Assembly (NCBI GenBank): GCA_964646515.1
Contig: CAZYES010000001.1
Coordinates: 7,582-71,581 of the forward strand
DNA: 64,000 bases
Reading direction: 5' to 3'
Origin: an uncultured Candidatus Saccharibacteria bacterium
GTDB taxonomy: Bacteria > Patescibacteriota > Minisyncoccia > Phycocordibacterales > PALSA-1337
Shown here: piece by piece, positions 50 to 35,551 of the stretch
How positions within the stretch are numbered: the stretch's first letter is position 1
Layout of the letters: the number at the start of each line of letters is the position of its first letter
The notes under the pieces: model-generated
What the model was told of the DNA's origin: nothing
Databases searched by the model: none
What the model saw: the letters and a program-made list of their open reading frames with translations, nothing else
Program-made: the position numbers and the translations under genes

Positions 50-315
50 GTTACTTAACGGGAAGAGTATAACACAATTTATTTTATCTTGATATTGACA
101 GTCTCTTCTTTTAGATGTCTGCTGTTGAGCGGATTTATAAATTTATGGAACGTAGTTTTTTGATTGATATCGTAGGTTGATATCATTTTGCAGTACTTTG
201 TTGGTTTATATCGAGATTGTTGTGTGTGAAATAGGATCCACGTGGGTTCAGAGATACCTGGTAATTCCGAAATTTTCTTTTTTATATAACATATTGAGTA
301 AGTTTAGTAATGATT

Positions 316-324
316 TGCTATAAT
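316..324 (+). promoter_or_regulatory. Extended -10 promoter TGCTATAAT, 9 nt upstream of ATG 334
   Basis: Exact TGnTATAAT match; no Shine-Dalgarno site between it and the ATG. Confidence 0.5.
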
Positions 325-333
325 ATATGCAAT

Positions 334-2082
334 ATGTTTGTTGAAGATACCCAACTCTATAAATTTATTCTTGATTCTGGTCTTGTGGCCAAGTCCGATC
401 TCGACAATGCCAAGGAGGAGAGTGAGAAGCACAACAAACGTATAGGGGAAATTTTGGTCTCTCAGGGTAAGATTGACCCAGACAATTTACGGCGCATGCA
501 GGCTTATGTTTTAGGTATACCTTTTGTCGACTTGAAAAATTCAAAAATACCTTTTGAAACATTGTCACTCATTCCCGAACCAATCGCCAGGAGTCACAAT
601 ATTGTTGCCTTCAAAAAAAATGATGTGTCCCTAGAAGTAGCCATGTTAGATGTCAACGATCTGTCAGCTATTGATTTCATAAAAAAGAAAGTCAACCTGA
701 AGATTATGCCACGCATGACAGACACTGATTCGATGAAAGATGTGCTAGTTCAGTATCAAAAAAGCCTAAAAGCCGAATTTGGAGATATTATCCAAAAAGA
801 GACAGAGAGTTTGAAGATGATCTCTGAAGAAAAAGGCAAGCCAGTCTCAGAGAGTGATCTAAAGAAAATCGCAGAAGATCTACCTGTGGTACGCATCGTC
901 GACACCCTGATCAAGCACGCTATATTACAAAACGCTTCAGATATTCACATAGAACCCATGGAGGATCAAACTTTGGTCAGGTATCGTATCGATGGTTTGC
1001 TTCATGATGCCATGGTTCTTCCGAAACAAGCTGGGCCATCGGTAGTGGCGCGTATCAAAGTACTTTCCAATCTAAAGCTTGACGAAAAGCGATTGCCACA
1101 AGATGGAAGATTCAAAGTAGATATGAATAATGAGAAAGTCTCTTTTCGTGTTTCTATCTTGCCGACATATTATGGAGAAAAGACCGTGATGCGTCTTTTG
1201 AGGGAAGATATTACGGGATTTACTCTGGAATACCTAACTTTACATGGAGAAGGCTTGGAAAATATACACGAAGCACTTACGCGAACGACTGGCATGATTT
1301 TGACCACAGGTCCTACTGGCTCTGGAAAGACTACTACGCTTTACACTATGCTCGATATCTTGAATACACCAGATGTCAATATCTCTACTATTGAGGATCC
1401 TATAGAATATCAGGTAGCGCGCATCAATCAGACGCAAGTCAAACCAGAGATAGGTTTTTCCTTTGCCCAAGGGATACGCACTCTGGTTCGACAAGACCCT
1501 GATATTATTATGGTTGGTGAGATCCGCGATAATGAGACTGCTTCTTTGGCCGTGAACGCATCTCTTACTGGTCACCTTGTGCTTTCTACTTTGCACACAA
1601 ATTCTGCGGCTGGAGCTATTCCTCGACTAATAGACATGAAAGTTGAGCCGTTCTTATTGGTCTCTACACTTGATATATTGATTGGGCAAAGACTAGTTCG
1701 TCGTCTTACGGAATCAAAGAGAGAATATAAACTTTCCAAACCACAATTTGCCCAGTTGGAAAAAAAGGTCGATTTGGACCGCGTGTTACAATCACTAAAA
1801 GCAGAAAAAATAGTCAAACCAGATGATTCCTGGGACAAAATCTCGTTTTACAAAGATGTGCCTGGTCCAGAAAATGATGGGTTCAAGGGTCGTGTTGGTA
1901 TTCATGAAGTCATGAAGGTAACGCAACCAATAAAAGATCTCATTATGAAAAATGCAACGTCAGTAGATATCGAAAATCAAGCCAAGAAGGAGGGTATGCT
2001 TACTATGATCGAAGATGGCGTATTCAAGTGCGTACAGGGATTGACCACCATAGAAGAAGTTTTGAGGGTAGTATCAGAATAA
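334..2082 (+). CDS. pilB: Type IV pilus / T2SS assembly ATPase (PilB/GspE family)
   Basis: ORF 310..2082. MshEN-like N-terminus, Walker A GPTGSGKTT, Asp box DPDIIMVGEIRD, His box LVLSTLHTN. Start placed at in-frame ATG 334 because the -10 box lies inside the 310 start. Confidence 0.9.
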   Translation: MFVEDTQLYKFILDSGLVAKSDLDNAKEESEKHNKRIGEILVSQGKIDPDNLRRMQAYVLGIPFVDLKNSKIPFETLSLIPEPIARSHNIVAFKKNDVSLEVAMLDVNDLSAIDFIKKKVNLKIMPRMTDTDSMKDVLVQYQKSLKAEFGDIIQKETESLKMISEEKGKPVSESDLKKIAEDLPVVRIVDTLIKHAILQNASDIHIEPMEDQTLVRYRIDGLLHDAMVLPKQAGPSVVARIKVLSNLKLDEKRLPQDGRFKVDMNNEKVSFRVSILPTYYGEKTVMRLLREDITGFTLEYLTLHGEGLENIHEALTRTTGMILTTGPTGSGKTTTLYTMLDILNTPDVNISTIEDPIEYQVARINQTQVKPEIGFSFAQGIRTLVRQDPDIIMVGEIRDNETASLAVNASLTGHLVLSTLHTNSAAGAIPRLIDMKVEPFLLVSTLDILIGQRLVRRLTESKREYKLSKPQFAQLEKKVDLDRVLQSLKAEKIVKPDDSWDKISFYKDVPGPENDGFKGRVGIHEVMKVTQPIKDLIMKNATSVDIENQAKKEGMLTMIEDGVFKCVQGLTTIEEVLRVVSE

Positions 2083-2083
2083 T

Positions 2084-3304
2084 ATGTCACATTTTGTTTT
2101 CAAAGCAAAAAAACCTAGTGGCGAAATATATTCGGGCCAAAAGGACGTGGCTGATCGCTATGAACTTTATAAGATACTTCGTGGAAGCAATGAAGAACTT
2201 GTCTCTTTCAAGGAGAAGAAAGCTTCTCGAGGTATGAATATGAATATTTCATTTGGTAATATTTTTTCTCGTGTGAAAACAATAGAGAAGATAAATCTTG
2301 CCAGAAATCTAGGCTCTATGTTGGAAGCAGGACTAGATCTGTCTCGCGCTCTTTCTGTTTTGGAGCGCCAAACGAAAAATAGGGCCACGAGGGATGTTCT
2401 CACTGATCTTATTAGTGAGATAAGCAAGGGGGCAACATTTTCTGGATCACTGACCAAACATAGCAAAGTTTTTCCGCCTTTGTTTATATCGATGGTTCAT
2501 GCTGGTGAGCAATCTGGCACATTGTCTGATTCTCTGAAAGCAATTGCTGTTCAGATGGACAATACTTATTCTCTAGAGCGGCGTGTTCGTGGTGCTATGA
2601 CATATCCGGCAGTCATTGTCACTGCAATGGCAGTGATAGGTGTTCTCATGTTCATCTTTGTTGTGCCAACACTTCTCAAGACTTTTACTGATCTGAATGT
2701 TACTTTACCTTTTACGACGAAAGTGATCATTGCCGTCTCTGATATCATACAAAATTACGGTCTTTTGGTTTTGCTTGCCTTTGTCGTCTTGATCGGTGTT
2801 TTATATTGGTGGTCAAAGAAAGATATGGGGAAAAGATTTCTCCATATGATTGTTCTTAAAATTCCCGTTATAGGGACACTCATACAGGAAGTCAATACTG
2901 CGCGTACGGCTAGAACACTCTCGTCGCTTTTGGGGTCCGGCGTAGAGGTAGTCGAGGCGCTGGAGATAACGGCAAAGGTTGTCCAGAATGTCCACTTTCG
3001 CGCGGTACTAAATGAGGCTATTGCTACTATCAAAAAAGGCGATTTAATCTCGAAGACATTTTCTGAACATGAAAAATTGTACCCAGTATTTTTCTCCGAA
3101 ATGATAAACGTGGGTGAGGAGACTGGCAAAACAGGGGAAATGCTTCTCGGTGTAGCGAAATATTACGAAGAAGATGTTGGCCAAAAAACCAAAGATATGT
3201 CTGCTTTGATAGAGCCAGTCCTAATGATTGTAATCGGCGTGGCCGTAGGTTTCTTTGCTGTTTCCATGATCTCGCCTATATATTCGCTAGTGAATGTGAT
3301 CTAG
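2084..3304 (+). CDS. pilC: Type IV pilus / T2SS platform protein (PilC/GspF family)
   Basis: 406 aa with a duplicated GspF-like domain and 3 hydrophobic segments. Starts 1 nt after the pilB stop. Confidence 0.9.
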   Translation: MSHFVFKAKKPSGEIYSGQKDVADRYELYKILRGSNEELVSFKEKKASRGMNMNISFGNIFSRVKTIEKINLARNLGSMLEAGLDLSRALSVLERQTKNRATRDVLTDLISEISKGATFSGSLTKHSKVFPPLFISMVHAGEQSGTLSDSLKAIAVQMDNTYSLERRVRGAMTYPAVIVTAMAVIGVLMFIFVVPTLLKTFTDLNVTLPFTTKVIIAVSDIIQNYGLLVLLAFVVLIGVLYWWSKKDMGKRFLHMIVLKIPVIGTLIQEVNTARTARTLSSLLGSGVEVVEALEITAKVVQNVHFRAVLNEAIATIKKGDLISKTFSEHEKLYPVFFSEMINVGEETGKTGEMLLGVAKYYEEDVGQKTKDMSALIEPVLMIVIGVAVGFFAVSMISPIYSLVNVI

Positions 3305-3320
3305 ATTATTCTTTTTAGAC

Positions 3321-4625
3321 TCAAATCTCAATCCAATCTAGGATATCATATCCTCCTCCTGGCCCAGCAGAAAAAAGTGTGCTCGGAAGACCCGTGTCAT
3401 AAGTTACATTGGCGGTATTTTGCAGAACAATTTTGTAGGCGGTAACTTCTTTGGCGCTTACTCTTTGACCGAGGGTGATCTGTCCATGGTTGGCATAAGC
3501 AACTAGTGCCCCAGCGGATTGGCCCATGGCAACTGCGTTTGTGGATCCACCATTCTCAGCACTTCCATTTTGAGAAATGCAGAAGACAAATGAGTTTGGC
3601 GCGCCCGAACCCTGGAATTGAGTATTTTGTCCCACGGAAATAATACCACTAGTCGTGGAAGCCGATGGATTGTCGGCGATCAAAGCCACGTTTTGGCTCC
3701 CTAGGCTCGGATTTATCTTAATTATTGGGCCAGTTTGTGTATATATATTACCAACGACCCAAACTGGACCAGACATGGTCATCGTGACGCCGTTTCCTTT
3801 GATATAAAGATCGCAAGGTATTTTCGCTGGCCCGATGTCTTCATCCGATTCAATGGTATATTTGCCGCTAGTACATACGATTATATCGCCATTACTTGCT
3901 TGATCTTCCCACTCGGCTATTTGCGTGTCAGAAATTGGCATAGAGGCTTCAGGCAGATCAGCGCTATTTGGGAAGCAGTTTACGTTAGGGCATGGAGAGC
4001 CACCAACATCTGTGTTGCTAATAGTTTTATAAAAGGCCTTTTTTTCGATTGTAGAGTTTCTGATTGTGTGAGCATAGGCTGTGCCAGTAGCGTGAATTCC
4101 ATCTATCGATCCTGTTGCTTCTGCGGATATGGCGTCCCCATATATATAATTGCCCGCCCCGGTTATGGTGCCGTTGGAGAAAACATTTCCCGTAACACTG
4201 GATCGGTTTTGCATGACAAATCCACCTCGTCCCGACTGAATGCCATAATGGAAAGCTATCCCTGTTCCAAGAGAAAGATCAATTTGAAGTTTTCTTTGGT
4301 ACCCATTCACTTGTGCGTTGGTAGAAATTTTTTTGCCATTTTGCGTATTTTCAATGGTGACATTTGTTATGTTGGAATTGAGGCTGATGTTTAATGATGG
4401 CCCGATATTTTTGCCAGTCTTCAAACGGTATAGTGCTTCCTCAATGGCGCTATTGGCAGAGATGTATGATTGCTTTGAACTGATGGACCCTTTTGTTGAG
4501 GCAAAGTGGGCGAGTACGATATTAACCACGCCGATGATTATCACTATCACAATGGAAATAAATAAAAGAGTATTCAGGATGATTATATAGCCACCTTGCT
4601 TCTTGTTGTTGAGTCTATTTGTCAT
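3321..4625 (-). CDS. Pilus-associated large protein with a PilX-like hydrophobic N-terminus (putative minor pilin or tip protein)
   Basis: Last gene of the pilin operon. N-terminus KKQGGYIIILNTLLFISIVIVIIIG, followed by G/N/T/S-rich repetitive segments suggesting beta-rich structure. No recognised catalytic motif. Confidence 0.5.
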   Translation of the reverse strand: MTNRLNNKKQGGYIIILNTLLFISIVIVIIIGVVNIVLAHFASTKGSISSKQSYISANSAIEEALYRLKTGKNIGPSLNISLNSNITNVTIENTQNGKKISTNAQVNGYQRKLQIDLSLGTGIAFHYGIQSGRGGFVMQNRSSVTGNVFSNGTITGAGNYIYGDAISAEATGSIDGIHATGTAYAHTIRNSTIEKKAFYKTISNTDVGGSPCPNVNCFPNSADLPEASMPISDTQIAEWEDQASNGDIIVCTSGKYTIESDEDIGPAKIPCDLYIKGNGVTMTMSGPVWVVGNIYTQTGPIIKINPSLGSQNVALIADNPSASTTSGIISVGQNTQFQGSGAPNSFVFCISQNGSAENGGSTNAVAMGQSAGALVAYANHGQITLGQRVSAKEVTAYKIVLQNTANVTYDTGLPSTLFSAGPGGGYDILDWIEI

Positions 4626-4627
4626 GG

Positions 4628-5212
4628 TTATTGGTATGAATTCCTAAGTGTTGTGAAGCCACTGAATGTGCTTGTGGCAGGACCACTTTTCGTCAGATAT
4701 GGAATGTCTATGATGAAGTGTACGGCAGATGAGACGGGTGAAACTAAATAGTCGAAATAAAGGTCGGCTATTTTTACGTCGGTTGGAGAAATGTATTGAA
4801 TTTCGCCGGTATTGTCCATGTAGGCGACTCGGTTATTTGAGATAAAATAGCGTCTATCTATGGTTGTTGTCGTACTAGTTAACATATTTATGGATAGGGC
4901 GCCATTATTTGATCCAAGAATGCTTTGACCAGTGTTTATTATTTTGCCAGATCGGATGGCGCTCTCTATTTGTCCCATGATTACGGTTCCAACTTGGTTT
5001 ACGCGAGATGGAATAGCTACTGCTCTGTACCAACTGATGGTGTAATACAGGAATCCGGCAATTGCTCCGATGAGAAGGACTACTATTATTACGTAGATCA
5101 AAGTTTCCACCAATGTAAAACCTTTATTTTTTTCGGAAATTCCTTTTGCAGTAGTAAGTTTCCGATGGGTGAGTATTTTTGTAAACATTTTGTGTATGTT
5201 CTGAAAGTGCAT
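4628..5212 (-). CDS. Prepilin-type N-terminal cleavage/methylation domain protein (pilin-like)
   Basis: Class III signal KG|FTLVETLIYVIIVVLLIGAIAG; abuts neighbouring pilin genes. Confidence 0.8.
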   Translation of the reverse strand: MHFQNIHKMFTKILTHRKLTTAKGISEKNKGFTLVETLIYVIIVVLLIGAIAGFLYYTISWYRAVAIPSRVNQVGTVIMGQIESAIRSGKIINTGQSILGSNNGALSINMLTSTTTTIDRRYFISNNRVAYMDNTGEIQYISPTDVKIADLYFDYLVSPVSSAVHFIIDIPYLTKSGPATSTFSGFTTLRNSYQ

Positions 5213-5213
5213 G

Positions 5214-5699
5214 TTAATTTTGGAAGATATTGTGAAGTAGCATATTAGAGACTAGTAGCTCTTTGGGGGGACTTCCAGTAGAAGATATAGTGATGGTTAC
5301 GCTTCTTGTATCAGGATCAACAGTTCCTCCAGACGAGACTATGTCTTTTGATAAGTCGTCTCTTTGGACGGTGTTCATGACAAAAGAGACAGTAAATGCG
5401 TTGTTTACAGTAATTGGCGATAGAGAAACTGAATAAGAGACATCACTCCAATACAGATAGTAAGTTGTGCCGATATTCAAGGTGTCTATTTTCTCATCCC
5501 AACTCATATCTCGATAAAATCTCAAAGCTTCGGCGGCTTCTTCTGTCAGCAAGGCAGCCTGTGTGCGCTCGTTACTCTCTCTGGATATTCTGAGATACAG
5601 CTGAAAAGCTCCAGCTCCAGCGGTGACAACCGATATGATAATTGCCGCGGCGACTATCGTTTCTACGAGGCTGAAACCTTTTTTTGTGTTTTTTGTCAT
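5214..5699 (-). CDS. Prepilin-type N-terminal cleavage/methylation domain protein (pilin-like)
   Basis: KKG|FSLVETIVAAAIIISVV motif near the N-terminus; 4-nt overlap with the upstream pilin gene. Confidence 0.8.
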   Translation of the reverse strand: MTKNTKKGFSLVETIVAAAIIISVVTAGAGAFQLYLRISRESNERTQAALLTEEAAEALRFYRDMSWDEKIDTLNIGTTYYLYWSDVSYSVSLSPITVNNAFTVSFVMNTVQRDDLSKDIVSSGGTVDPDTRSVTITISSTGSPPKELLVSNMLLHNIFQN

Positions 5700-6163
5700 T
5701 TTATGATGTTAATATCTCCTTGGCTGCCTATAAAAATATTTTTTACACGAGAAGGATCTGTAATATATTGTATAGTTATTGTGGCCATAGTCTGTGGTAT
5801 ACCAGAAAGTCTAGCGAAAACTACACTACCTAGACTGTTGGGAGTAGTGGCGATCATATAACCATTTGTGACAGCGTAATTTTCGTTGGTTGTTGCTGAG
5901 GGATTGAATGAATTGCCCACGAAGTATGTGTAAGTAGTACTACCAAAATCTATTCCTGCCCCTGTTCCATTTTTTCCGAATGTGGCATTGATTTTTGCTT
6001 GTTCTAACTTGGAAACAATCGCGTCTGTAAGCGTGTTTATCTCACTCGATCGTTTTGCATTTATAAAAGCTTGGGTACTAATGCCGAAAAGCACGACCAT
6101 TATAATCATAACGACCAAAATTTCTATGAGAGTAAATCCTCTGTTATTGATTTGATCCCGCAT
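5696..6163 (-). CDS. Type IV pilin-like protein (first gene of pilin operon)
   Basis: NRG|FTLIEILVVMIIMVVLFG class III signal with Glu at +5. Confidence 0.85.
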   Translation of the reverse strand: MRDQINNRGFTLIEILVVMIIMVVLFGISTQAFINAKRSSEINTLTDAIVSKLEQAKINATFGKNGTGAGIDFGSTTYTYFVGNSFNPSATTNENYAVTNGYMIATTPNSLGSVVFARLSGIPQTMATITIQYITDPSRVKNIFIGSQGDINIIK

Positions 6164-6198: not shown

Positions 6199-6984
6199 AT
6201 GACTAATAAAAAATTGATTGTTGGCAATTGGAAAATGAACCCGGCAACACTGGATGAGGCCAAGAGAATCGCCAGAAAGACTAAGAGGGTTGCTACACAA
6301 CTCAAGTATACAGAAGCAATAATCTGTCCGCCGTTTGCTTTCATTTCTGCTTGTGCCTCGAGAAAAAAAATATCGGGTTTTGGTCTTGGCGCACAGAATG
6401 TCTCATATGAAGAAGACGGTGCTCATACTGGAGAAGTTGGCGCGGTAATGTTGAAAAATATTGGTGTTCAGTACGTGATTGTTGGGCATTCCGAAGAAAG
6501 AGCGCGGGGAGACTCCGATTCAATTGTCGCGAAAAAAATCAAGACACTTCTCGATTTTGGTCTTACGCCGATAGTTTGTGTTGGCGAGACTGTGCGCAAC
6601 GAAGATGGTTCGCATTTTGAATTTATAAAAGTACAAATAAAAAATAGTTTTGTGGATGTGCCAAAAAAATACGCTGATAAGATTATTCTAGCTTATGAAC
6701 CAGTTTGGGCGATTGGCGCCAAGGAGCCGATGTCACCGGAGAATATATATGAGATGTCGCTATTTGTGAAAAAGACTTTTGCTGATGTTTTTGGACAAAA
6801 GCCAGCGATGAAGATGACTATTTTATATGGGGGCTCAGTAAATTGCAGAAATGCGGTAGATATTATTTCTATCGGCAAGATTGATGGATTGTTGGTTGGA
6901 CGTGAAAGTGTGAATATTGTTGGTTTTGTTGAACTCTTGAAGGCGGTTGATGGTATTTATTCCGGTAGGCCATCTGATTGCTGA
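6199..6984 (+). CDS. tpiA: Triosephosphate isomerase
   Basis: LIVGNWKMN N-terminal motif, VGHSERR-like IVGHSEERA, YEPVWAIG. Confidence 0.9.
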   Translation: MTNKKLIVGNWKMNPATLDEAKRIARKTKRVATQLKYTEAIICPPFAFISACASRKKISGFGLGAQNVSYEEDGAHTGEVGAVMLKNIGVQYVIVGHSEERARGDSDSIVAKKIKTLLDFGLTPIVCVGETVRNEDGSHFEFIKVQIKNSFVDVPKKYADKIILAYEPVWAIGAKEPMSPENIYEMSLFVKKTFADVFGQKPAMKMTILYGGSVNCRNAVDIISIGKIDGLLVGRESVNIVGFVELLKAVDGIYSGRPSDC

Positions 6985-7025
6985 TGATATATGTCGTTAG
7001 TCTTTTTGCTATAATTGTCCAATAT

Positions 7026-8204
7026 ATGAGAACGCTTCGAGATATAGAATTTTTGGAAAACGTAAAAGTATTATTACGTGCTGATTTCAATGTTCCTATA
7101 GAGAATGGCGCGATTGTTGACGATTTTAGGATTCGTGCCACTTTGCCTACGATAGATTATCTGACAAAAAAAGGCGCAAAAGTTATTCTTGTCAGTCATC
7201 TAGAATCGGCAGATGGTAAAAATCTATCGCTTGCGCCGATTGCTGATCATATAAATAGACTTGGGGTCAAGACAAGTTTTATAAAAGATATAAAGAAATC
7301 TTACGAAGTTATTGAAACTTGTGATCCGAAATCTAAAAACGGAGGCAGTTGTTTTTTGTTGGAGAATCTTCGCCTTTTTGAAGGCGAGAAGGCGAATGAT
7401 AGAAAATTTGCAAAAGAATTGGCTTCATTGGCAGACATTTTCGTAAACGACGCCTTTTCTGTTTGTCATCGTAAGCATGCTTCAATAATCGGCGTGACGG
7501 AGTTTTTACCGAGCTACGCAGGATTACAATTGGAAGAAGAGATCAGTCATCTTTCGATGGCTTTCAACCCCACTCGTCCATTTCTTTTTGTTTTGGGAGG
7601 AGCAAAATTCGAAACCAAGTTGCCATTATTGCAAAAATTTATTGATAAAGTCGATACGGTTTTTGTTGGTGGGGCGTTGGTTAATGATTTGTTAAAGTCA
7701 AAGGGTTATGAAGTGGGCAAGTCGATAACTTCAAAAACAGAAGTTGATCTTACTGATATTATAAATAGTCCAAATCTTTTGTTGCCAGTGGATATTGTTA
7801 ATCAAGATAAGGTCTGCAAGGCCGTTGGCAGGCTCTCGTCTGAAGATATTAACATGGATATTGGTCCAGAGACTTTGGCTTTACTTGTTGAGAAGATCAA
7901 ATCGGCCAGATTTATTCTTTGGAATGGCCCACTTGGTAAGTATGAAAGTGGTTTCAAAGAAGCAACGCTTCAATTTGCCAAGGCCTTAGGTGATATAACG
8001 GAAAAAAGTAAAAGTTATAATGACCAAGAAAAGGCTGTATCTATTGTTGGTGGCGGGGATACTTTGGCGACAATTTCTCTGTTGGGGATTGAGAGAGAAT
8101 TTACTTTTGTGTCTACAGGCGGTGGCGCTATGCTAGACTTTTTGGCCGAGGGAACGTTACCTGGTATTTTGGCACTGGAAAATTCACCTAAGCTTGTTCA
8201 TTAA
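7026..8204 (+). CDS. pgk: Phosphoglycerate kinase
   Basis: ORF 6978..8204. Conserved N-terminus (VLLRADFNVP) begins after ATG 7026; C-terminal STGGGA motif present. Confidence 0.9.
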   Translation: MRTLRDIEFLENVKVLLRADFNVPIENGAIVDDFRIRATLPTIDYLTKKGAKVILVSHLESADGKNLSLAPIADHINRLGVKTSFIKDIKKSYEVIETCDPKSKNGGSCFLLENLRLFEGEKANDRKFAKELASLADIFVNDAFSVCHRKHASIIGVTEFLPSYAGLQLEEEISHLSMAFNPTRPFLFVLGGAKFETKLPLLQKFIDKVDTVFVGGALVNDLLKSKGYEVGKSITSKTEVDLTDIINSPNLLLPVDIVNQDKVCKAVGRLSSEDINMDIGPETLALLVEKIKSARFILWNGPLGKYESGFKEATLQFAKALGDITEKSKSYNDQEKAVSIVGGGDTLATISLLGIEREFTFVSTGGGAMLDFLAEGTLPGILALENSPKLVH

Positions 8205-8663: not shown

Positions 8664-8694
8664 TAGGCCAAGTCGTTTAGTGAGGTCGCGCACA

Positions 8695-8703
8695 TGCTAT
8701 ACT
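8695..8703 (+). promoter_or_regulatory. Extended -10 box TGCTATACT, 6 nt upstream of recJ ATG 8710
   Basis: TGCTATACT-ccattt-ATG. Confidence 0.45.
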
Positions 8704-8709
8704 CCATTT

Positions 8710-10533
8710 ATGTTTTATAATACTCGTCGTCAAATCACCGCAGAAGAACGTGTCAAAGTTGGCGTGACATCCGATCTGATTGCGCACCTGCTGTTTCATC
8801 GTGGCCTAGCCGATTTGGCTTTGGCCAAGGATTTTCTGGAACCAAACTATGAAAAAGGCACCCATGACCCGTTTCTCTTGAAAGATGCAGAAAAGTGTGC
8901 GAGGAGACTTATTCAGGCTATAAAAAATAATGAAAGAACGGCAATATATGCCGACTATGACGCCGACGGCATACCAGGCGCCGTAATTTTCAATGATTTT
9001 TTCAAGAGAATTGGTTTCTCTAACTATCTGATTTATATTCCCCACCGTCACGAGGAAGGTTTTGGCTTGAATATGGGGGCGGTCAGGGATTTGGCTAGTC
9101 AAGGTGTAAAACTTTTGGTTACGGTTGATTGTGGAATCACCGATGTCACACAGATTTCGGTTGCCAACGATCTGGGTATGGATGTGATAGTAACGGATCA
9201 TCACGAACCGCCACAGTTGCCGTCTGGCCAATCTCATCCAGCTTTTGCCATTGTCGATCATAAACAGATTGGTTGCGAATATCCTGATAAAAATCTTTGT
9301 GGATCCGGTATAGTCTACAAAATCATTCAAGGGATATTGAAAATTGATCGTTTTGGCCTCAAAGAGGGTATGGAAAAGTGGTTTTTGGACTTAGTCGGCA
9401 TTGCCACGTTGTCCGATATGGTCCCTTTGGTCGGTGAGAATAGAGTCTTTGCTTATTATGGCTTGTCAGTTTTGAGGAAAAGTCCGAGGAAAGGTTTGAT
9501 GCAGTTATTTCGTAAGCTGAAAATTGATCAGAGACACCTTTCTGAAGACGATATAACTTTTATGGTTACGCCCAGGATCAATGCTGCTTCCAGAATGGGC
9601 GTGTCGAGGGACGCTTTCAATCTCCTTGCTACCGATAACGATGATGATGCTTATAAATATGTTGAACATCTCGATAAGATCAATAATGAAAGAAAAGGGG
9701 TTGTGTCTTCCTTGGTCAAGGAAGTAAAAAAAATAGTGCGTGAGAGACACCCTGGTGTCGTCGGCTCCGCAGAGAAATCTTCTACTGCAAATTCGGAGTC
9801 GTCTCTACCAAACGTGATCGTACTCGGTAATCCAGATTGGCGACCGTCCTTGCTTGGACTAGTCGCCAACTCTTGCGCGGAAGAATTCGATCGGCCTGTT
9901 TTTCTTTGGGGAAGAGATGGTGACAATATTATCAAGGGCTCATGTAGATCCGAAGGCAAGACCGATGTCGTCAGATTGATGCGTGCTGCGCCGGTGGAGT
10001 CGTTCAGTCAATTTGGAGGTCACCACTATTCTGGTGGTTTTGCGGTAAGTAATGAAGAGATACATTATTTAGAGGAGAGGCTGAATGATGCTCACAATAA
10101 AATATTTAATTCGAGTTCTGTAGTCGAGAACGATAAAGGGGTTACTGAAGTAACTAGTAATAGTAAAAGCATAATTGATATGGAGCTTTCAATCGATGAG
10201 GTCGATTTTGGTTTGTGTGCTGATATCAACAAGTTGGCGCCTTTTGGGGTGGGGAATTCCAAGCCCATTTTTCTCTTTAGAAAAATTATACCTGTCGGGA
10301 TAAAGATGTTTGGCAAAAGTAAAGATCATCTCGAATTGATATTCAAAAAGAAGGATAATTCTAGAATATCGGCGATTTCATTTTTTGGTGCAAATAATAA
10401 GTGGGCTAAAAAAGTGAAAACCAATGGTGAAATTGATCTTATTGCTTCGATAGAAAAATCGGTGTATCGTGGCAGGGAAGAACTTCGATTGAGAATTGTA
10501 GATGTGTTCTTGGGTCCGATTGGTTTAGATTAG
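8710..10533 (+). CDS. recJ: Single-stranded-DNA-specific exonuclease RecJ
   Basis: ORF 8680..10533 (GTG). DHH-family motifs DYDADGI and VTDHH, plus a DHHA1-like region. ATG 8710 preferred because of the -10 box position. Confidence 0.85.
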   Translation: MFYNTRRQITAEERVKVGVTSDLIAHLLFHRGLADLALAKDFLEPNYEKGTHDPFLLKDAEKCARRLIQAIKNNERTAIYADYDADGIPGAVIFNDFFKRIGFSNYLIYIPHRHEEGFGLNMGAVRDLASQGVKLLVTVDCGITDVTQISVANDLGMDVIVTDHHEPPQLPSGQSHPAFAIVDHKQIGCEYPDKNLCGSGIVYKIIQGILKIDRFGLKEGMEKWFLDLVGIATLSDMVPLVGENRVFAYYGLSVLRKSPRKGLMQLFRKLKIDQRHLSEDDITFMVTPRINAASRMGVSRDAFNLLATDNDDDAYKYVEHLDKINNERKGVVSSLVKEVKKIVRERHPGVVGSAEKSSTANSESSLPNVIVLGNPDWRPSLLGLVANSCAEEFDRPVFLWGRDGDNIIKGSCRSEGKTDVVRLMRAAPVESFSQFGGHHYSGGFAVSNEEIHYLEERLNDAHNKIFNSSSVVENDKGVTEVTSNSKSIIDMELSIDEVDFGLCADINKLAPFGVGNSKPIFLFRKIIPVGIKMFGKSKDHLELIFKKKDNSRISAISFFGANNKWAKKVKTNGEIDLIASIEKSVYRGREELRLRIVDVFLGPIGLD

Positions 10534-10542
10534 GTCTCAAAA

Positions 10543-10551
10543 TGCTAGTAT
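10543..10551 (+). promoter_or_regulatory. Extended -10-like box TGCTAGTAT, 6 nt upstream of the rnhA ATG
   Basis: TGCTAGTAT-gttttt-ATG. Confidence 0.4.
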
Positions 10552-10557
10552 GTTTTT

Positions 10558-11301
10558 ATGAGAAAAAATCCTAGGATAATAATTTTTACAGATGGGTCTT
10601 CACGCGGTAATCCCGGTCCAGGAGGATGGGCCAGTGTTATAGTGACGGGTGTTTTGCCAAAAATAGAGAGTAGAAAAGCCACAGTGACAGAAATAGGTGG
10701 CGCAGAAAAGATGACGACAAATAATAGGATGGAACTTGTGGCGGCAATGCAAGGCATTTCACATACGCCACAAGGTTCAGAAGTAACCGTTTACACGGAT
10801 TCGTCATATTTGATCAATGGTATGACGAAATGGATCAAGAATTGGAAAAGAAATGGTTGGGTTACCAAGACCAAAGGTGATGTGTTGAATAAAGATATAT
10901 GGATAACGCTTGATCGATATGTTAACGAGAGAAGTATCAGTTGGAAATATGTTGGTGGGCACATTGGTATTGTGGGCAATGAAAGATGTGATCATATAGC
11001 CACTAGTTTTGCTGATGGTATAAAAATAGAATTATATAGGGGTTTTCTTTCTGGGTATGATTTGCCCAATATCGTGAATATATCGGAAGACGACAAAAAA
11101 GTTATGATAAAGGAAAACAAATCTTCTCGCTCGAGATTGAAAGCTTATTCATATGTGAGTTTGGTCAATGGCATCATCAAAATTGATCATTCTTGGGCGG
11201 AGTGTGAAAGACGCGTCAAGGGAGTCGGGGGCGCAAGATATAAAAAAGCGACAGATGCTAGTGACGAAGCTAAAATTATCGAGGGATTCAGTATGGCGTA
11301 A
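10558..11301 (+). CDS. rnhA: Ribonuclease HI with a C-terminal hybrid-binding-like domain
   Basis: N-terminal RNase H fold with DEDD candidates (FTDGSS, NNRMEL, YTDSSY, NERCDHIA). The C-terminal ~50 aa (AYSYVSLVNGIIKIDHSWAECERRVKGVGGARYKKATDASDEAKIIEGF) resembles the RNase H1 N-terminal hybrid-binding domain. Confidence 0.8.
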   Translation: MRKNPRIIIFTDGSSRGNPGPGGWASVIVTGVLPKIESRKATVTEIGGAEKMTTNNRMELVAAMQGISHTPQGSEVTVYTDSSYLINGMTKWIKNWKRNGWVTKTKGDVLNKDIWITLDRYVNERSISWKYVGGHIGIVGNERCDHIATSFADGIKIELYRGFLSGYDLPNIVNISEDDKKVMIKENKSSRSRLKAYSYVSLVNGIIKIDHSWAECERRVKGVGGARYKKATDASDEAKIIEGFSMA

Positions 11302-11413
11302 ATATGGTCGTAGAGTATGGTCGGGAGATTTCATCTGGATTTGATTTTTTATTTATCAAGATTTTAATCTTTTTTTATTGGGATTTTATCTAAGATGAGT
11401 ACGATTAACTCTC

Positions 11414-12841
11414 ATGAAGAGAGGGGTTTTTGTTTTTTGGAGTATTCTCGTTGCGGTCGCGCTTTTGCGTTTGTGGCAATCTTTCGATGTAAAGGCACCA
11501 GATCTTGGTATATGTGTGGGACAAAACGTCAATGGCACCGGTATAGTTTACGAGGAACCAGAACGCAAAGAAACAGGGCAGATCTTTATGGTGTCTGTCC
11601 ACAGATTGTCTGTTGCTAGCACCTCGGCTGGATGTCGTGGTGATTTTCTTATTCGTCTGAAGACCAAGTTGTATCCTAGGTTTGTTTATGGTGACCTAAT
11701 TGAGTTTAGTGGAAGACTTTCTTTGCCGATTAATTTTGGCGGTGCCACCGGAAGAACTTTTGATTACAAAGGGTATCTGGCCAAAGATGGTGTTTTCTAT
11801 GAAATCAAGAGTGCCACGGTCTCTACCGTAATAACGGGGTCGTCAACCCCCGAAAAGAACGTTGCAAATGATGGAGATTTAATTAAAGGTTTACATGCTA
11901 GTGACAATGGCGCAATTGGTTGGCTAGCTCCTACTCTTTATTCTCTAAAGAGAAACTTTGTAAAAAATTTAGAGAAGATTCTCGGTGAACCTCATGCCGC
12001 TTTGGCTTCTGGACTTGTTGTCGGAGAGAAAGCCGCTCTGGGTAAAGATTTACTGGATGATTTTCGAATAGTCGGGCTTATTCATATCGTCGTTTTATCT
12101 GGTTATAACATCACTATCGTCGGCGATGCCATGAGACGTGCTCTTTCGTTTTTCCCTAGGATCTGGGGAATTGGTCTGGGTGGTATAGGTATTGCTTTGT
12201 TTGGTGTCATGGTCGGCGGAGGCGCAACAGTGGTTCGTTCATGTCTTATGGCCGGCATTGCTTTGTCGGCAGATCTCATTCGCCGCGAATATAACGTTAT
12301 GCGTGCCCTTATTTTTGCGGGATTGGCCATGATAGTCCAAAATCCCATGATTCTTTTGCATGATCCTTCTTTTCAGTTATCATTTTTAGCTACAATAGGA
12401 CTTATATTACTTGCTGGTCCCATTGAGAGGCACCTAAGGTTTGTCCCAAAAAGATTTGGTCTACGTGGCATTGTTGCCTCTACCCTGGCCACACAGGTTT
12501 TTGTCTCTCCTTATATCTTGTACATGATGGGCCAGTTTTCAGTTATCGGGGTAGTCGTCAATATCTTGGTACTACCATTTGTTCCTATGACGATGTTTTT
12601 CGTTTTTGTAGCCGGAGTGGTTGGTTTTATATCGCTTTCTTTTGCACAAGTTTTCGGTTGGATTGCATACTCGTTGCTTTCATACGAATTATTTGTAGTA
12701 CGTCATTTTGCGCAGATGCCATTTGCTTCAGTCCATTTGCCATTATTTTCTGGTTGGTTAGTAGTTGGATTTTATAGCATGTTTTTTCTTATCTTATTAT
12801 TTGTCGCATGGAGAAGGAGAGTGCATGTAATATCACTATGA
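11414..12841 (+). CDS. comEC: ComEC/Rec2 DNA internalisation channel (OB/DUF4131 plus competence membrane domain; no MBL domain)
   Basis: 475 aa with an N-terminal TM, an OB-like region and multiple TM helices typical of the Competence domain. Confidence 0.8.
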   Translation: MKRGVFVFWSILVAVALLRLWQSFDVKAPDLGICVGQNVNGTGIVYEEPERKETGQIFMVSVHRLSVASTSAGCRGDFLIRLKTKLYPRFVYGDLIEFSGRLSLPINFGGATGRTFDYKGYLAKDGVFYEIKSATVSTVITGSSTPEKNVANDGDLIKGLHASDNGAIGWLAPTLYSLKRNFVKNLEKILGEPHAALASGLVVGEKAALGKDLLDDFRIVGLIHIVVLSGYNITIVGDAMRRALSFFPRIWGIGLGGIGIALFGVMVGGGATVVRSCLMAGIALSADLIRREYNVMRALIFAGLAMIVQNPMILLHDPSFQLSFLATIGLILLAGPIERHLRFVPKRFGLRGIVASTLATQVFVSPYILYMMGQFSVIGVVVNILVLPFVPMTMFFVFVAGVVGFISLSFAQVFGWIAYSLLSYELFVVRHFAQMPFASVHLPLFSGWLVVGFYSMFFLILLFVAWRRRVHVISL

Positions 12842-13824
12842 GGATCGTGGCCAAAACATTTATCATAACTTTGATTGTAATTGTGGCTACATTTATTTTT
12901 GGTCTTTATATATGGCGCGATGAACATCGCCCATCTATTCTGGAAATTTATGTCTTTCCTATGAAAAGTGGGCGTTCTATGTTCGTGCGTACGCCAGATG
13001 ATGTGAGAGTACTGATCGATGGTGGCTCAAATTCGGAAATCGTGCGTAAAATTACCGAAATATTACCTTTTTATTCAAGACGGATTGACATTGTGATTGC
13101 TACGAATGGTGACGGCAAAAATGTGTCGGGGCTGATCGATGTCGTAGATCGATATAAAGTTGGTCATGTATATATTCCGGCGGTAACGCTTCAATCTCTG
13201 GGCATAGCAAGCTCGACTGATCAGATCTATGGTACATTTGAAAGTGATCTTGTCAACAAGGGCATTGCGACTACCAAATTGTTGGCTGGCGATACCATAG
13301 ATCTTGATTCCAGAACAAATATTCGCATTCTATTTCCATTTAAGGACAATCAATTTGTTTATTCCAAGGCCAGTGCGCCAGAGTTGCTATTTGAAATAAT
13401 GATTGGTAATAATTTTTTGACATTTCTCGGTAATGCTTCAAATAAAATACAGAAGGCTATCGCTTCTTCAACTTTTTCCTCGTTTGTTTCTTTGGAAACT
13501 TCGTCGGCAGTAAAATCGATTCATCAGTCTCGCGTTCTAGTCCTTTCCCATAGCGCTTTACCGGCAAATATGTCGCCACAGCTTATGGGTAAAATACGGC
13601 CAGAATATTTGGTTTATTCAAGAGTAATAAGTCGTACGGTGACATCATCGCCCAGTAAATCATCAGCTCCTGTGACGAGTTCATCTAGCAGTGCTCGAAA
13701 GAAAAAAATGGTTATCGATCCGCTTGTCTCTGTTACAAATGAAAAGAGATTTAACTTAAAAGAAGGGAGAACAGTGAAAGTTGTTCTTGATGAGAAAGAT
13801 ATCAAAGTTATCGATCAACTTTAG
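12838..13824 (+). CDS. ComEC C-terminal metallo-beta-lactamase-like domain protein, metal ligands degenerate
   Basis: ORF 12808..13824. ATG 12838 overlaps the comEC TGA (ATGA). N-terminal TM, then ILEIYVFPMKSGRSMFVRTPDDVRVLIDGG and IDIVIATNGDGKNVSGL where ComEC MBL domains carry DVGQGD and THxHxDHxGG. Confidence 0.65.
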   Translation: MRIVAKTFIITLIVIVATFIFGLYIWRDEHRPSILEIYVFPMKSGRSMFVRTPDDVRVLIDGGSNSEIVRKITEILPFYSRRIDIVIATNGDGKNVSGLIDVVDRYKVGHVYIPAVTLQSLGIASSTDQIYGTFESDLVNKGIATTKLLAGDTIDLDSRTNIRILFPFKDNQFVYSKASAPELLFEIMIGNNFLTFLGNASNKIQKAIASSTFSSFVSLETSSAVKSIHQSRVLVLSHSALPANMSPQLMGKIRPEYLVYSRVISRTVTSSPSKSSAPVTSSSSSARKKKMVIDPLVSVTNEKRFNLKEGRTVKVVLDEKDIKVIDQL

Positions 13825-13844
13825 TTTTGCCCTATCCGTGTTTG

Positions 13845-14087
13845 CTAGATCAATCCAGCTTTTTTCAAGGTTTTGAGTGCGCCGTTTTTTTGGATTGTGC
13901 GCAGAGCTCTCGTAGACACATTCAAGACTATAGTTTTTTTCAGTTCGGGAACATAGATGCGCTTTTTTTGCAGGTTTGGGTACTTTCTAATTGTGCCACA
14001 AGGATTGAATTGTGTGGCACGAGTACGGTTCGAGTAGCGACCGCCTACGACCGATTTCTTCTGAGTTATAGCGCATATTTTTGCCAT
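13845..14087 (-). CDS. rpmB: 50S ribosomal protein L28
   Basis: 80 aa; MAKICAITQKKSVVGGRYSNRTRATQ is typical of L28. Confidence 0.9.
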   Translation of the reverse strand: MAKICAITQKKSVVGGRYSNRTRATQFNPCGTIRKYPNLQKKRIYVPELKKTIVLNVSTRALRTIQKNGALKTLKKAGLI

Positions 14088-14174
14088 GGTAGTATTGAGA
14101 AACTATGCTATCATAAATCGTCCCCTTAAATCAAGTGACAGGTTTCGAGGAGGGATGATCATAAGTGCCAAAAC

Positions 14175-14780
14175 ATGTTGCAGGTTTTATCTATAGTTAT
14201 TCTTATATTGTCAGTTATCATCCACGAAGTTTCCCACGGCTATATGGCTGATGTCTTGGGCGATCCTACGGCCAGACTGCAGGGTAGATTGACTCTGAAT
14301 CCAATAAAGCATATGGATCCGGTGGGTTCTGTGCTTATTCCACTGCTTACTACTTTTTTGGCCGGTTTTACTTTTGGCTGGGCGAAACCAGTTGTTTACA
14401 ATCCATATAATTTGAGAAATAAGAGGCAGGGAGAGTTTCTCATAGCTATCGCTGGTCCGTTTTCGAACCTATTACTCGCTTTAATTTTTGGGATGATTAT
14501 GCGGTTTACTATTGGTCCAGCGGGTATTATTACACCGTTTATAGAGATTGTCTCGTATATCGTTATTATCAATATAATTTTAGCGATCTTCAATTTGATT
14601 CCACTGCCGCCACTTGACGGCTCGAAACTTTTTTTGGCTTTTTTGCCAAATCAGTATGGCCAAATCCGTGTGGCTCTAGAAAGATACGGGTCAATTTTTG
14701 TTATCATCGCAGTACTTTTTCTCTGGCAATTGGTTGTGCCTATAGTGCCTTTCATCTTTAATTTATTCACTGGCTTATAA
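14175..14780 (+). CDS. Site-2 protease family (peptidase M50-like) membrane metalloprotease
   Basis: HEVSHG (HExxH) in the first TM region; polytopic membrane protein; LNLIPLPPLDG motif. Confidence 0.8.
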   Translation: MLQVLSIVILILSVIIHEVSHGYMADVLGDPTARLQGRLTLNPIKHMDPVGSVLIPLLTTFLAGFTFGWAKPVVYNPYNLRNKRQGEFLIAIAGPFSNLLLALIFGMIMRFTIGPAGIITPFIEIVSYIVIINIILAIFNLIPLPPLDGSKLFLAFLPNQYGQIRVALERYGSIFVIIAVLFLWQLVVPIVPFIFNLFTGL

Positions 14781-18974: not shown

Positions 18975-20426
18975 ATGAAATTAGACAAATCTTTTTTTGG
19001 AAAGGAATTCAAGTATATTCTCATTCTTACTATTTTGGCCTGGATGGTTTATTCATTGCCACAAGTCAAGGAGTCTATGAGTAGACCGGTTGTTAGCGAT
19101 CCTGCCACAAGCAGTGTGGCGGCAGTAGGAGCGACTTCTGTGGCAACATGCCCCGGGGGATATATCTGTATACCTATTTCTCGGGCCAATAGTTATTGTC
19201 CAGCAGGATATACATGTACTCAAACGGCGACTACTTCACAGCCGTATATTAGTCTGAACGCTTCCTCGACCAATATCGGTCTAGGCCAATCTACAGTCGT
19301 ATTTTGGTCTACGAACAATGTGACCAATTGTGTCGGCACACAGGATGGCGGTGACGAGAAAGTGCCAGCCATATTCAGTGCTCCAGCCACAAGGGGCTCA
19401 TTTACTGTTACTCCATCACAAAGTGTCACTTATACATTGGCATGTTCTTTTGGGACAGTAGGTAAGATGTCAAAGAGTGTGACCATAAATGTGGGGCAAT
19501 ATCAATCATCTTGGCCAAGTTCTATTTCTGCGACTATAAATAGTGCGACTCCACTCAAGGGTCTTGTTCAAATATCAGAAACAGTGCCTACTTCCAATGT
19601 GTCATTGATGGTCTTCAATTTGAAATCGACGAACGGAACATCAACGCTTCGACAGATTAAGCTAAGTGTACAGATGAGCACATCTTCTCCCGATGCACGT
19701 TTATTTAACAACATGAAACTTAAGGCAGGTGGCAATATTTACTCGGCATTTTATATATATGAGCATAATAATATTGCAGATGTTGTATTCTCTGATATGT
19801 CAATAACATTGCCAAGCAATGCCACTGTCGCATTTATCTTAACTGCCGACATAGCTGCGGATTTACAGCGCAGGTTTGACGGTGTTGGTATTCGTGCGTA
19901 TCTTCAAGCAGATAAATCAAGTATATATGCCGAATATGGTGCTCGACAGTTACCAGTAAATATGGCGAATATTACAGGGAATACTCTTACACTTGTTAGT
20001 AATTCTCCTATCGTTAGTAATTTGTCGACCTTGTATGGCGTTCCCACTACTAACGGATATGGCTCTACTACCCAAAAATTTTCTTTCCGCTTTGCGATCA
20101 CGGCTAATGCAGATCCGATCTATTTGTCGAGATCATTGAATAGCGCTATTAGTACTTCAACTGTGCCCAATCCTAGTAATATATTTATTTCCCCTATCAG
20201 CTTTTCTGATACTGATGCGAGTGGCGATGGCCCAGGATATTTATATATTGCTCCTGGCCAAACGAAGACCTTCACTGCTATCTACTCAGGTTCTGGTCAG
20301 AGTTCAGCAGTTGGTACGTTCAACGTAAGTGCTATCAACTACGGAACGTCATCAGATGCTCTTACCTCGGCATCTATAACTTCGTCGCAGATCACCAACG
20401 GATTAAAAGCAGTCTTGTTTCATTAG
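18975..20426 (+). CDS. Secreted or anchored hypothetical protein with paired CPxGYxC motifs and beta-sandwich-like repeats
   Basis: 483 aa; N-terminal hydrophobic segment; CPGGYICIP and CPAGYTCT motifs. Architecture resembles the ORF at 62234. Confidence 0.75.
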   Translation: MKLDKSFFGKEFKYILILTILAWMVYSLPQVKESMSRPVVSDPATSSVAAVGATSVATCPGGYICIPISRANSYCPAGYTCTQTATTSQPYISLNASSTNIGLGQSTVVFWSTNNVTNCVGTQDGGDEKVPAIFSAPATRGSFTVTPSQSVTYTLACSFGTVGKMSKSVTINVGQYQSSWPSSISATINSATPLKGLVQISETVPTSNVSLMVFNLKSTNGTSTLRQIKLSVQMSTSSPDARLFNNMKLKAGGNIYSAFYIYEHNNIADVVFSDMSITLPSNATVAFILTADIAADLQRRFDGVGIRAYLQADKSSIYAEYGARQLPVNMANITGNTLTLVSNSPIVSNLSTLYGVPTTNGYGSTTQKFSFRFAITANADPIYLSRSLNSAISTSTVPNPSNIFISPISFSDTDASGDGPGYLYIAPGQTKTFTAIYSGSGQSSAVGTFNVSAINYGTSSDALTSASITSSQITNGLKAVLFH

Positions 20427-34871: not shown

Positions 34872-34875
34872 GTAA

Positions 34876-35505: not shown

Positions 35506-35551
35506 GACGGAGATATGAGATTGAAATTGGGAATAAAGACAAAATTTTTAA

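Follow-up and report, generated by a model that had tools for sequence, protein, structure and literature searches.

The DNA-uptake channel ComEC ends in a metallo-beta-lactamase (MBL) domain, which was reportedly shown in 2021 (Silale) to be a strand-degrading nuclease; the first structures of the protein are said to date from 2025–2026 (Hospenthal lab). The COG database has separate groups for the N-terminal part of ComEC (COG0658) and for its C-terminal MBL part (COG2333), and separately encoded halves are probably known to annotators. Here we analysed a pair of overlapping open reading frames (ORFs), ORF1 and ORF2, at positions 11,414–13,824 of a 64-kb stretch of contig CAZYES010000001.1 (“the window”, part of a genome only), deposited as an uncultured Candidatus Saccharibacteria bacterium. 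The pair is a two-gene ComEC, conserved clade-wide, with a probably dead nuclease subunit that plainly derives from ComEC. What this subunit does at present we infer from its sequence.

In bacterial transformation, ComEC serves universally as the channel for DNA import. Canonical ComEC/Rec2, known from B. subtilis and from Moorella/Neomoorella (structures 9ic4 and 30bt), has an OB fold, the Competence channel and a last transmembrane (TM) helix with the MBL domain, in this order. The cryo-electron microscopy structure shows 11 TM helices, the last of which, TM11, connects to the MBL domain (PMC13539106). Most ComECs have three TM helices before the OB fold, H. pylori being cited as a one-helix exception (PMC13539106). 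The M. glycerini nuclease domain uses the residues H598-x-D600-x-D602-H603, D700 and H725; the variants H598A, D602A, H603A and D700A are virtually inactive, while D600A loses only ~5-fold (PMC12455585). Downstream of motif V lies a conserved aromatic pin loop, whose aromatic residues (F689 and F691) are essential in L. pneumophila (PMC12455585).

Two departures from this plan have been described. About half of all ComECs are scored as lacking the MBL domain (“DC” or “C” profiles; Pimentel & Zhang 2018, PMC6299819), and how they handle the second strand is acknowledged as an open question (PMC8579336). In S. pneumoniae the C-terminal domain (CTD) is still fused and has substituted ligands: Asn stands for a His in motif II and for an Asp in motif IV. 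Its changes are conservative (Asp to Glu) and milder than those described below. It works beside a separate nuclease, EndA, and being possibly inactive it “may be retained to act as a guide” (Silale et al., PMC8579336).

The locus in the window keeps the canonical module order and divides it between two polypeptides:

11414–12841, + strand: ORF1, N-terminal part of comEC (comEC-N), predicted channel subunit, 475 aa
11420–11485, + strand: single N-terminal TM helix of ORF1
11432–11821, + strand: OB/DUF4131 fold of ORF1, residues 7–136 (Pfam, E 3e-13; score 50 bits, cutoff 31.6)
12014–12811, + strand: polytopic Competence domain of ORF1, PF03772, residues 201–466 (Pfam, E 2.8e-45; score 155 bits, cutoff 23)
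12808–13824, + strand: ORF2, predicted membrane-anchored, degenerate MBL-fold subunit, 338 aa, in a reading frame different from that of ORF1
12838–12841, + strand: ATGA junction, in which an ORF2 start (ATG 12838) overlaps the ORF1 stop (TGA 12839–12841)
12847–12924, + strand: single TM helix of ORF2, equivalent to TM11 of ComEC (helix 7–39 in the AlphaFold2 model; aligns to 30bt_A from residue 516)

An earlier sequence-only reading of the window had given these ORF coordinates with the ATGA overlap, and the ORFs were found exactly so, in different frames. It had also assigned the OB/DUF4131 and Competence domains to ORF1, as the Pfam matches confirm (E 3e-13 and, rounded, E 3e-45). For the start of ORF2 it had offered two codons, ATG 12838 (328-aa form) or the alternative upstream in-frame ATG 12808 (338-aa form). 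The N-termini of the ORF2 homologues align to the Met at 12838 and favour this start; both forms are present among public gene calls and assemblies. The G + C content was flat over the window (~0.39–0.44), with no sign of a foreign insertion. Our promoter and terminator scan of positions 10400–14300 gave results at chance level only.

ORF1 aligns with residues 224–495 of the solved full-length ComEC 30bt_A and ends in a basic tail, WRRRVHVISL, which is presumably cytoplasmic. All of its 120 closest homologues (120/120) carried DUF4131 and Competence without Lactamase_B. Against TIGR00361, the equivalog model for full-length ComEC/Rec2, ORF1 scored 77.7 bits, below the cutoff of 190, and covered model positions 110–419 of 663. 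The locus thus does not pass this model, which describes one polypeptide with the C-terminal MBL domain as part of it. Taken alone, ORF1 would score as “DC”, and it raises the same question about the non-transported strand as the MBL-less ComECs do; here, in contrast to those, the MBL module persists as a separate, degenerate gene below the Pfam thresholds. ORF1 has one TM helix before the OB fold, not three as in canonical ComEC, and its DUF4131 match begins at model position 34.

Both the sequence and the predicted fold of ORF2 show homology to the nuclease domain of ComEC. ORF2 had no Pfam or NCBIfam match above threshold, including Lactamase_B (PF00753) and TIGR00361, and its sole Pfam trace was a sub-threshold match to MBL_MAP1B (E 0.11, 12 bits against a cutoff of 37.6). 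With phmmer it matched residues 516–697 of 30bt_A (E 2e-7) and 9ic4_A (E 3e-5), and a profile built from 40 members of the ORF2 family matched residues 531–746 of 30bt_A with E 3e-12. The AlphaFold2 model, made from the 40-member family alignment, was confident, with a predicted local distance difference test (pLDDT) of 86.6 and a predicted template-modelling score (pTM) of 0.81. It shows a long N-terminal helix followed by an alpha-beta/beta-alpha sandwich. The top Foldseek match of this model was the ComEC beta-lactamase-like domain 9ic4 (E 4.8e-18, template-modelling score 0.79 on the target), ten orders of magnitude better than the runner-up, Pce (E 1.3e-8). There were 254 PDB matches at E ≤ 0.001, and the top 50 listed all have the MBL fold, among them Pce, RNase J, INTS11 and tRNase Z. 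In total we found 193 stand-alone homologues of ORF2.

The sequence-only reading had proposed for ORF2 a TM helix of its own and a domain collinear with the ComEC MBL nuclease, and had named hidden Markov model searches and structure prediction as checks. Sequence, profile and Foldseek results agree with it. Lactamase_B gave no match in ORF2, TIGR00361 matched ORF1 only and below its cutoff, and the predicted structure is a confident MBL fold with 9ic4 as its best match.

ORF1 stops at about residue 495 of the solved ComEC and the alignment of ORF2 begins at about residue 516. TM10 is thus the last ComEC helix with a counterpart in ORF1, and TM11 has its counterpart at the beginning of ORF2, which places the break in the cytoplasmic TM10–TM11 loop. 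Judged from these alignments to 30bt_A (224–495 and 516–746), the two proteins together are exactly collinear with full-length ComEC.

We mapped the metal ligands of ORF2 by profile alignment of its family to ComEC. The former active-site motifs and the region that follows them are:

12964–12975, + strand: remnant of motif I, KSGR (GQGD in ComEC), from the alignments; the Asp is lost and R56 lies here
13102–13131, + strand: remnant of motif II, TNGDGKNVSG (THPDADHIGG in ComEC), from the alignments
13360–13383, + strand: family-specific YSKASAPE loop in the position of motif III (SNNNS in ComEC)
13429–13440, + strand: remnant of motif IV, GNAS; the metal-bridging Asp (D700 equivalent) is Asn209
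13546–13557, + strand: remnant of motif V, SHSA (HHGS in ComEC); the H725 equivalent, H248, is kept
13621–13716, + strand: Ser/Thr/Lys-rich variable low-complexity linker without an aromatic residue, at the position of the pin loop

In M. glycerini numbering, the equivalents of H598 (N100), D602, the general base (K104), H603 (N105), D700 (N209) and S728 (L251) are lost, and those of D600 (D102) and H725 (H248) are kept. Where the nuclease domain has H-x-D-x-D-H, Asp and His, ORF2 reads N-x-D-x-K-N, Asn and His, with two of the six kept. Of the metal or catalytic residues, this mapping thus finds four of six replaced, and among the four are all those whose mutation leaves the M. glycerini enzyme virtually inactive. 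A metal motif elsewhere in ORF2 was ruled out: the protein has only four His residues (40, 120, 239 and 248), of which H120 and H239 are not conserved, and no HxHxDH-like string.

Such a displaced motif was what the sequence-only reading had said would contradict it. That reading had noticed PMKSGR and ATNGDGKNVSG where DVGQGD and THxHxDHxGG are expected, and the alignments indeed place KSGR under GQGD and TNGDGKN under THPDADH. Its statement that all His/Asp ligands are gone went too far, as four of the six are lost and the equivalents D102 and H248 remain. Its conclusion that the nuclease function is probably absent still stands as the likely one, the metal site appearing lost with four of six ligands replaced.

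The substitutions recur throughout the closest relatives of ORF2. Statistics were drawn from 224 full-length family members, with a core clade (score of at least 350, n = 135) and the most distant stand-alone members (score <140, n = 16):

D602 equivalent kept: core 1%, distant 94%
Lys or Arg at the D602 position: core 90%, distant 0%
H598 equivalent kept: core 4%, distant 75%
H603 equivalent kept: core 5%, distant 94%
D700 equivalent kept: core 25%, distant 81%
H725 equivalent kept: core 71%, distant 88%
YSKxSxP loop present: core 100%, distant stand-alone MBLs with intact motifs 0%

The D600 equivalent (D102) was kept in 39% of the core clade. At the R56 position in motif I, 72% of the core clade had Lys or Arg and 1% had Asp. 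Residues Y185, S186, S189 and P191 of the YSKxSxP loop were invariant in the 40-sequence family alignment.

The split is genuine, ancient and conserved. Assemblies from NCBI, JGI and Logan contained the exact ORF1 on 22 contigs and the two forms of ORF2 on 16 and 6. When one genome per species was scanned, 43 loci had an ORF2 relative (L-numbers below; P-numbers are homologous proteins, either of the ORF2 family or relatives of ComEC-N), all in metagenome-assembled genomes (MAGs) of the Paceibacteria/Parcubacteria type. In 35 of the 43, a relative of ORF1 was found upstream on the same strand, with 49–66% identity in the best aligned segment, and the two genes were never fused. At most loci inspected they were 600–1800 bp apart, and the gap held an opposite-strand gene of ~197 aa, a Fe/Mn superoxide dismutase (SOD; Sod_Fe_C, E 9e-22). 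One such gene lies at L002:5300-5893 (−). Direct adjacency as in the window was found also in L018 (12-bp gap), and in L023 the gap was only 146 bp. By tblastn, the window had no SOD gene between comEC-N and ORF2, nor elsewhere in its 64 kb. Among the 193 homologues of ORF2, the 120 listed were all stand-alone proteins, as were the best 150 representatives from a profile search of 1.84 billion proteins, and in neither set was any protein longer than 396 aa.

An assembly artefact, or a decaying pseudogene fragment in the case of ORF2, could be suspected from the overlap of the ORFs in different frames, as a single-base indel would give, and from the missing Pfam match of ORF2. We give this explanation hardly any weight. 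None of the 43 loci has a broken ORF, 25 residues are invariant at ~45% identity, and ORF2 has its own start codon, TM anchor and confident fold. A frameshift error is excluded because the two-gene layout is conserved across species (35/43), often with the opposite-strand SOD between the genes, and because identical ORFs recur on 16–22 independently assembled contigs. This settles the caveat of the sequence-only reading, which had allowed for such an error and had named a single continuous comEC ORF as evidence against its proposal of two overlapping genes. The survey of related genomes that it recommended found the split to be typical, with linked and unfused genes at 35 of the 43 species loci.

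The taxonomic labels of the records look unreliable. Many loci (L002, L005, L006 and others) are titled “uncultured Candidatus Saccharibacteria” and have Paceibacteria or Parcubacteria as their closest named relatives, and a ComEC-N protein with 65% identity (P0260) is named “Nanoarchaeota archaeon”.

Some ComEC-N relatives carry an additional C-terminal part. About 10% of the close relatives (P0266, P0270, P0280, P0283, P0338 and others) are 600–690 aa long because some 150 aa are added at the C-terminus. When six were scanned, this extension had in four a weak match to PBECR2/PBECR3 (E 3e-5 to 4e-3, below the gathering thresholds). These are nuclease domains of the Barnase/EndoU/colicin-E5/RelE-like type, and by topology the extension would be cytoplasmic. 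At L020:4669-5112 and L010:3938-4456 a separate ORF of 147–172 aa follows comEC-N, with the shared C-terminal motif NFEILWRT, and the one in L020 had the same weak PBECR2 match. ORF1 of the window has no such extension.

The relatives also bear on the order of events. Distant members of the ORF2 family are stand-alone TM plus MBL proteins of 280–300 aa, with GQGD, THPxxDH, GD and HHGS all intact. Two of them, P0253 (in L044-L047) and P0245 (in L050), are encoded in the same layout as in the window: their genes, for proteins of 285–287 aa, overlap a DC-type comEC-N gene at its 3' end, with 4 bp shared in the case of P0253 and 11 bp in that of P0245. To our knowledge, split ComECs of this intact kind are not described in the papers searched. 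Their MBL proteins have 26% identity to ORF2 (E 2e-21 against the window), keep the four motifs and match Lactamase_B, and they are presumably active; ORF2 has neither the motifs nor the match. An intermediate, P0230, has four of the six ligands and lies in the block recJ-rnhA-comEC-N-SOD-MBL-L28-M50-S12-S7-EF-G, the same as for the genes of the window. Intact two-gene relatives, together with an intermediate at the orthologous locus, indicate that fission came first and catalytic death later. The simplest history suggested by these sequences would be a fission of comEC, followed by a stepwise, in-place loss of the metal site in one Paceibacteria lineage.

Purifying selection acts on ORF2, and its conserved positions cluster in the loops of the former active site. 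Among 40 family sequences at ~45% identity there were 25 invariant and 30 nearly invariant columns, and the family ORFs were intact in 43 of 43 species loci. Conserved columns made up 11 of 31 positions in the five former active-site loops and 41 of 263 elsewhere (odds ratio 3.0, Fisher p 0.009). The TM11-equivalent helix was kept in all members of the alignment. ORF2 combines homology to an enzyme, substituted catalytic residues and purifying selection, and on these grounds would classify as a pseudoenzyme.

We propose, as the best-supported of the readings considered here though with only moderate confidence, that ORF1 and ORF2 form a two-subunit ComEC DNA-uptake channel with a non-catalytic MBL-fold subunit. 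The OB fold and the membrane channel through TM10 would come from ORF1. TM11 and the external domain with the MBL fold would come from ORF2, a polypeptide of its own whose translation is probably coupled to that of ORF1 by the ATGA overlap. ORF2 would insert with its N-terminus inside and its C-terminus outside, its TM helix packing on ORF1 as TM11 does in full-length ComEC. The remodelled, more basic cleft (K104, R56) would no longer bind Mn2+ or cut DNA. At the mouth of the channel it may still touch the DNA being taken up, or the OB fold, and serve as a cap or guide without catalysis. In that case the strand that stays outside would be displaced, or else degraded by the product of a gene elsewhere. 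ORF2, as its sequence suggests, probably now only holds or guides DNA. The sequence-only reading had likewise thought that the domain may be retained as a structural or binding module, which would fit the selection on the former active-site loops.

This arrangement has partial parallels. Like ORF2, the CTD of S. pneumoniae ComEC has substituted ligands. In contrast to it, ORF2 is a separate protein, has Lys in place of the general-base Asp and has lost a second His as well, and no EndA-like gene was found in the 64-kb window. By analogy only, CPSF100, INTS9 and the MBL-like domain of MAP1B have an MBL fold without the zinc ligands and serve as a structural partner in a nucleic-acid machine. 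CPSF100 and INTS9 are catalytically dead MBL paralogues that act as scaffolds and work together with an MBL paralogue that is active. For ORF2 no such active partner is evident, and no second copy of an MBL or ComEC gene was detected in the window by tblastn.

When ORF1 and ORF2 were re-fused in silico, the AlphaFold2 model, built with only 5 homologues of ORF1, was of low confidence, with a pTM of 0.48 and a pLDDT of 50–65 in the TM domain, and speaks neither for nor against docking. Several observations weigh against a two-subunit, non-catalytic channel. The loss of activity is deduced from the substitutions, and the remaining D102, H248 and several Asn side chains might in principle still bind a metal. 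The pin loop, placed by positional offset only, would correspond to residues ~272–303 of ORF2, which are variable and without an aromatic residue; this linker has a model pLDDT <65 (<50 at residues 278–281) and varies in length in the 40-sequence alignment. As the pin-loop aromatics are unrecognisable, a DNA-guiding role is not simply transferable from canonical ComEC. Over the same 32 genomes, mean pairwise identity was 45% for ORF2 and 63% for ORF1, and the two identity matrices correlated weakly (r 0.39). The faster evolution of ORF2 fits a relaxed but continuing constraint. Finally, comEC-N and the MBL-like gene are separate transcription units in most relatives, and in three loci (L012, L019 and L025) there was no comEC-N within 6 kb upstream of the MBL-like gene, so that tight co-expression is not universal.

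The retained residues allow for a different outcome, in which ORF2 is still a nuclease or phosphodiesterase. It would bind metal through D102, H248 and Asn residues, or hydrolyse without metal by means of the newly conserved Lys, Ser, Tyr and His. Conservation in ORF2 is highest in the former active-site loops, and the old catalytic location has the invariant YSKxSxP loop and the near-invariant K104. In addition, the conservative substitutions of S. pneumoniae need not abolish metal binding (Silale et al., PMC8579336). The substitutions in ORF2, however, are non-conservative at key positions, with the general-base Asp replaced by Lys, and H598A, D602A, H603A and D700A each left the M. glycerini domain virtually inactive (PMC12455585). 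For catalytic residues, D102 (39%) and H248 (71%) are poorly conserved in the core clade. The intact stand-alone relatives match PF00753 and ORF2 has no Lactamase_B match. Residual activity of this kind is in our judgement unlikely.

A more speculative idea takes the remodelling itself as the adaptation, and we would not expect it to hold, though it deserves mention. ORF2 would have been re-engineered, its cleft rebuilt around K104, R56 and YSKxSxP so as to hold the non-transported strand by the phosphate backbone and leave it uncut. This Paceibacteria clade would then rely on strand displacement or hand-off for uptake, and not on degradation of the strand. Alternatively, the Lys, Ser, Tyr and His of ORF2 may form a metal-independent hydrolase. 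If this were true, ORF2 would be a mechanistically distinct natural answer to the question of how nuclease-less ComECs handle the second strand.

Genes for a pilus are found near members of the ORF2 family, both in the window and in relatives. A type IV pilus cluster lies ~5 kb upstream of ORF1, followed by two overlapping ORFs:

310–6163, mixed strands: type IV pilus cluster
310–2082, + strand: PilB ATPase, 590 aa (tblastn with the T2SSE protein of L019, 889–2076, E 4e-87)
2084–3304, + strand: PilC, 406 aa (tblastn with the T2SSF protein of L019, 2321–3289, E 2e-24)
3321–6163, − strand: four ORFs of the cluster, three of them (4628–6163) with GF(T/S)L(V/I)E prepilin motifs, read from the translations
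6199–6984 and 6978–8204: tpiA and pgk, overlapping

Two relatives (L019:1859-6921 and L025:1694-7011) have a compact type IV filament operon of the ComGA/ComGB pilus type, the last gene of which shares 4 bp (ATGA) with the MBL-like gene. The operon encodes an ATPase of 387 aa (ComGA/PilB-like), a ComGB/PilC-like protein of 377 aa and two proteins whose N-termini resemble those of prepilins (Pfam T2SSE, E 3e-108; T2SSF, E 1e-34). In a Taylorbacteria MAG (L012:5369-7002) the next gene after rnhA is the MBL-like one, with no comEC-N where it usually lies. The three cases tie the ORF2 family to DNA uptake, and they show that adjacency to comEC-N is not obligatory.

They can also be read as signs of exaptation. 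ORF2 would then be derived from ComEC and now be a membrane-anchored surface protein, serving a type IV pilus or an interaction with a host or cell surface, and its linkage to comEC-N would be a historical remnant. The coupling to the pilus operon in L019 and L025, the L012 locus without comEC-N, the opposite-strand SOD that separates both genes in most relatives, the missing pin-loop aromatics and the weakly correlated rates of ORF1 and ORF2 are all in line with this. Such a change of role nevertheless seems to us rather improbable. The same-strand linkage to comEC-N has persisted in 35 of 43 species despite ~55% divergence, the TM11-equivalent helix is kept in all members, and the pilus itself belongs to the DNA-uptake machinery, so that an association with it does not detach ORF2 from competence.

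A two-subunit channel with a non-catalytic MBL-fold protein, as favoured above, would have wider consequences. At least some “MBL-less” ComECs of Patescibacteria would really be two-piece, and Pfam-based surveys undercount the MBL subunit. With intact, intermediate and dead forms all extant, the family offers a natural series of TM10–TM11 fission followed by stepwise loss of the metal site. The MBL fold would have been kept for a non-catalytic reason, with the old cleft conserved, making the family a sequence set for the study of non-cutting roles of the MBL domain. The finding also bears on the use of DNA uptake by the ultra-small, nucleotide-auxotrophic bacteria of the candidate phyla radiation. 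We found no description of a split or degenerate ComEC in Patescibacteria, nor of a ComEC pseudoenzyme, in an incomplete coverage of the literature, which is a weak sign of novelty.

The genes are embedded in a conserved block, pgk-HIT-recJ-rnhA-comEC-N-(SOD)-MBL-like-L28-M50-rpsL, in which recJ was present at 31 of the 43 loci, rnhA at 34, and L28 and M50 at 41 each. In the window, the two genes upstream of ORF1 are:

8680–10533, + strand: recJ (Pfam DHH/DHHA1/RecJ_OB)
10558–11301, + strand: rnhA (Pfam RNase_H)

The sequence-only reading had speculated that recJ and rnhA might supply strand processing. Their order is conserved, and as a substitute for the external nuclease they were ruled out by topology. 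We read the translations of RecJ and RNase H by eye and saw no N-terminal membrane segment; they would thus act in the cytoplasm and not replace the strand nuclease, given that the MBL domain of ComEC is extracellular. The linkage may be one of conserved gene order only. A Pfam scan of 30 further ORFs of the window recognised no EndA/NucA-like protein and, as candidate nucleases, only a cytoplasmic-type TatD, RecJ and RNase H; as it covers part of the genome, it is not evidence of absence.

The RNase H has its RNase_H domain at residues 6–150 and a C-terminal extension of ~95 aa. The extension had a weak match to the hybrid-binding domain of RNase H1 (Cauli_VI, E 3e-4, residues 211–230), a domain that is normally N-terminal.

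Elsewhere in the window, three ORFs had no Pfam match at E ≤ 0.001: 18975–20426 (+, 483 aa), 39461–39988 (+, 175 aa) and 3321–4625 (−, 434 aa), the last within the pilus cluster. A compact deoxynucleotide/folate cluster at 34362–38943 encodes dihydrofolate reductase (DHFR), dCTP deaminase and ThyA on the − strand, and dCMP deaminase, Tmk and serine hydroxymethyltransferase (SHMT) on the + strand. It is notable for a lineage that is usually described as poor in nucleotide synthesis. At 41900–45580 (+) lies a gene for a class I aminoacyl-tRNA synthetase of 1226 aa, IleRS-like (tRNA-synt_1 plus Anticodon_1), with a histidine-phosphatase domain (His_Phos_1, residues 551–738, E 2e-27) inserted in its catalytic domain.

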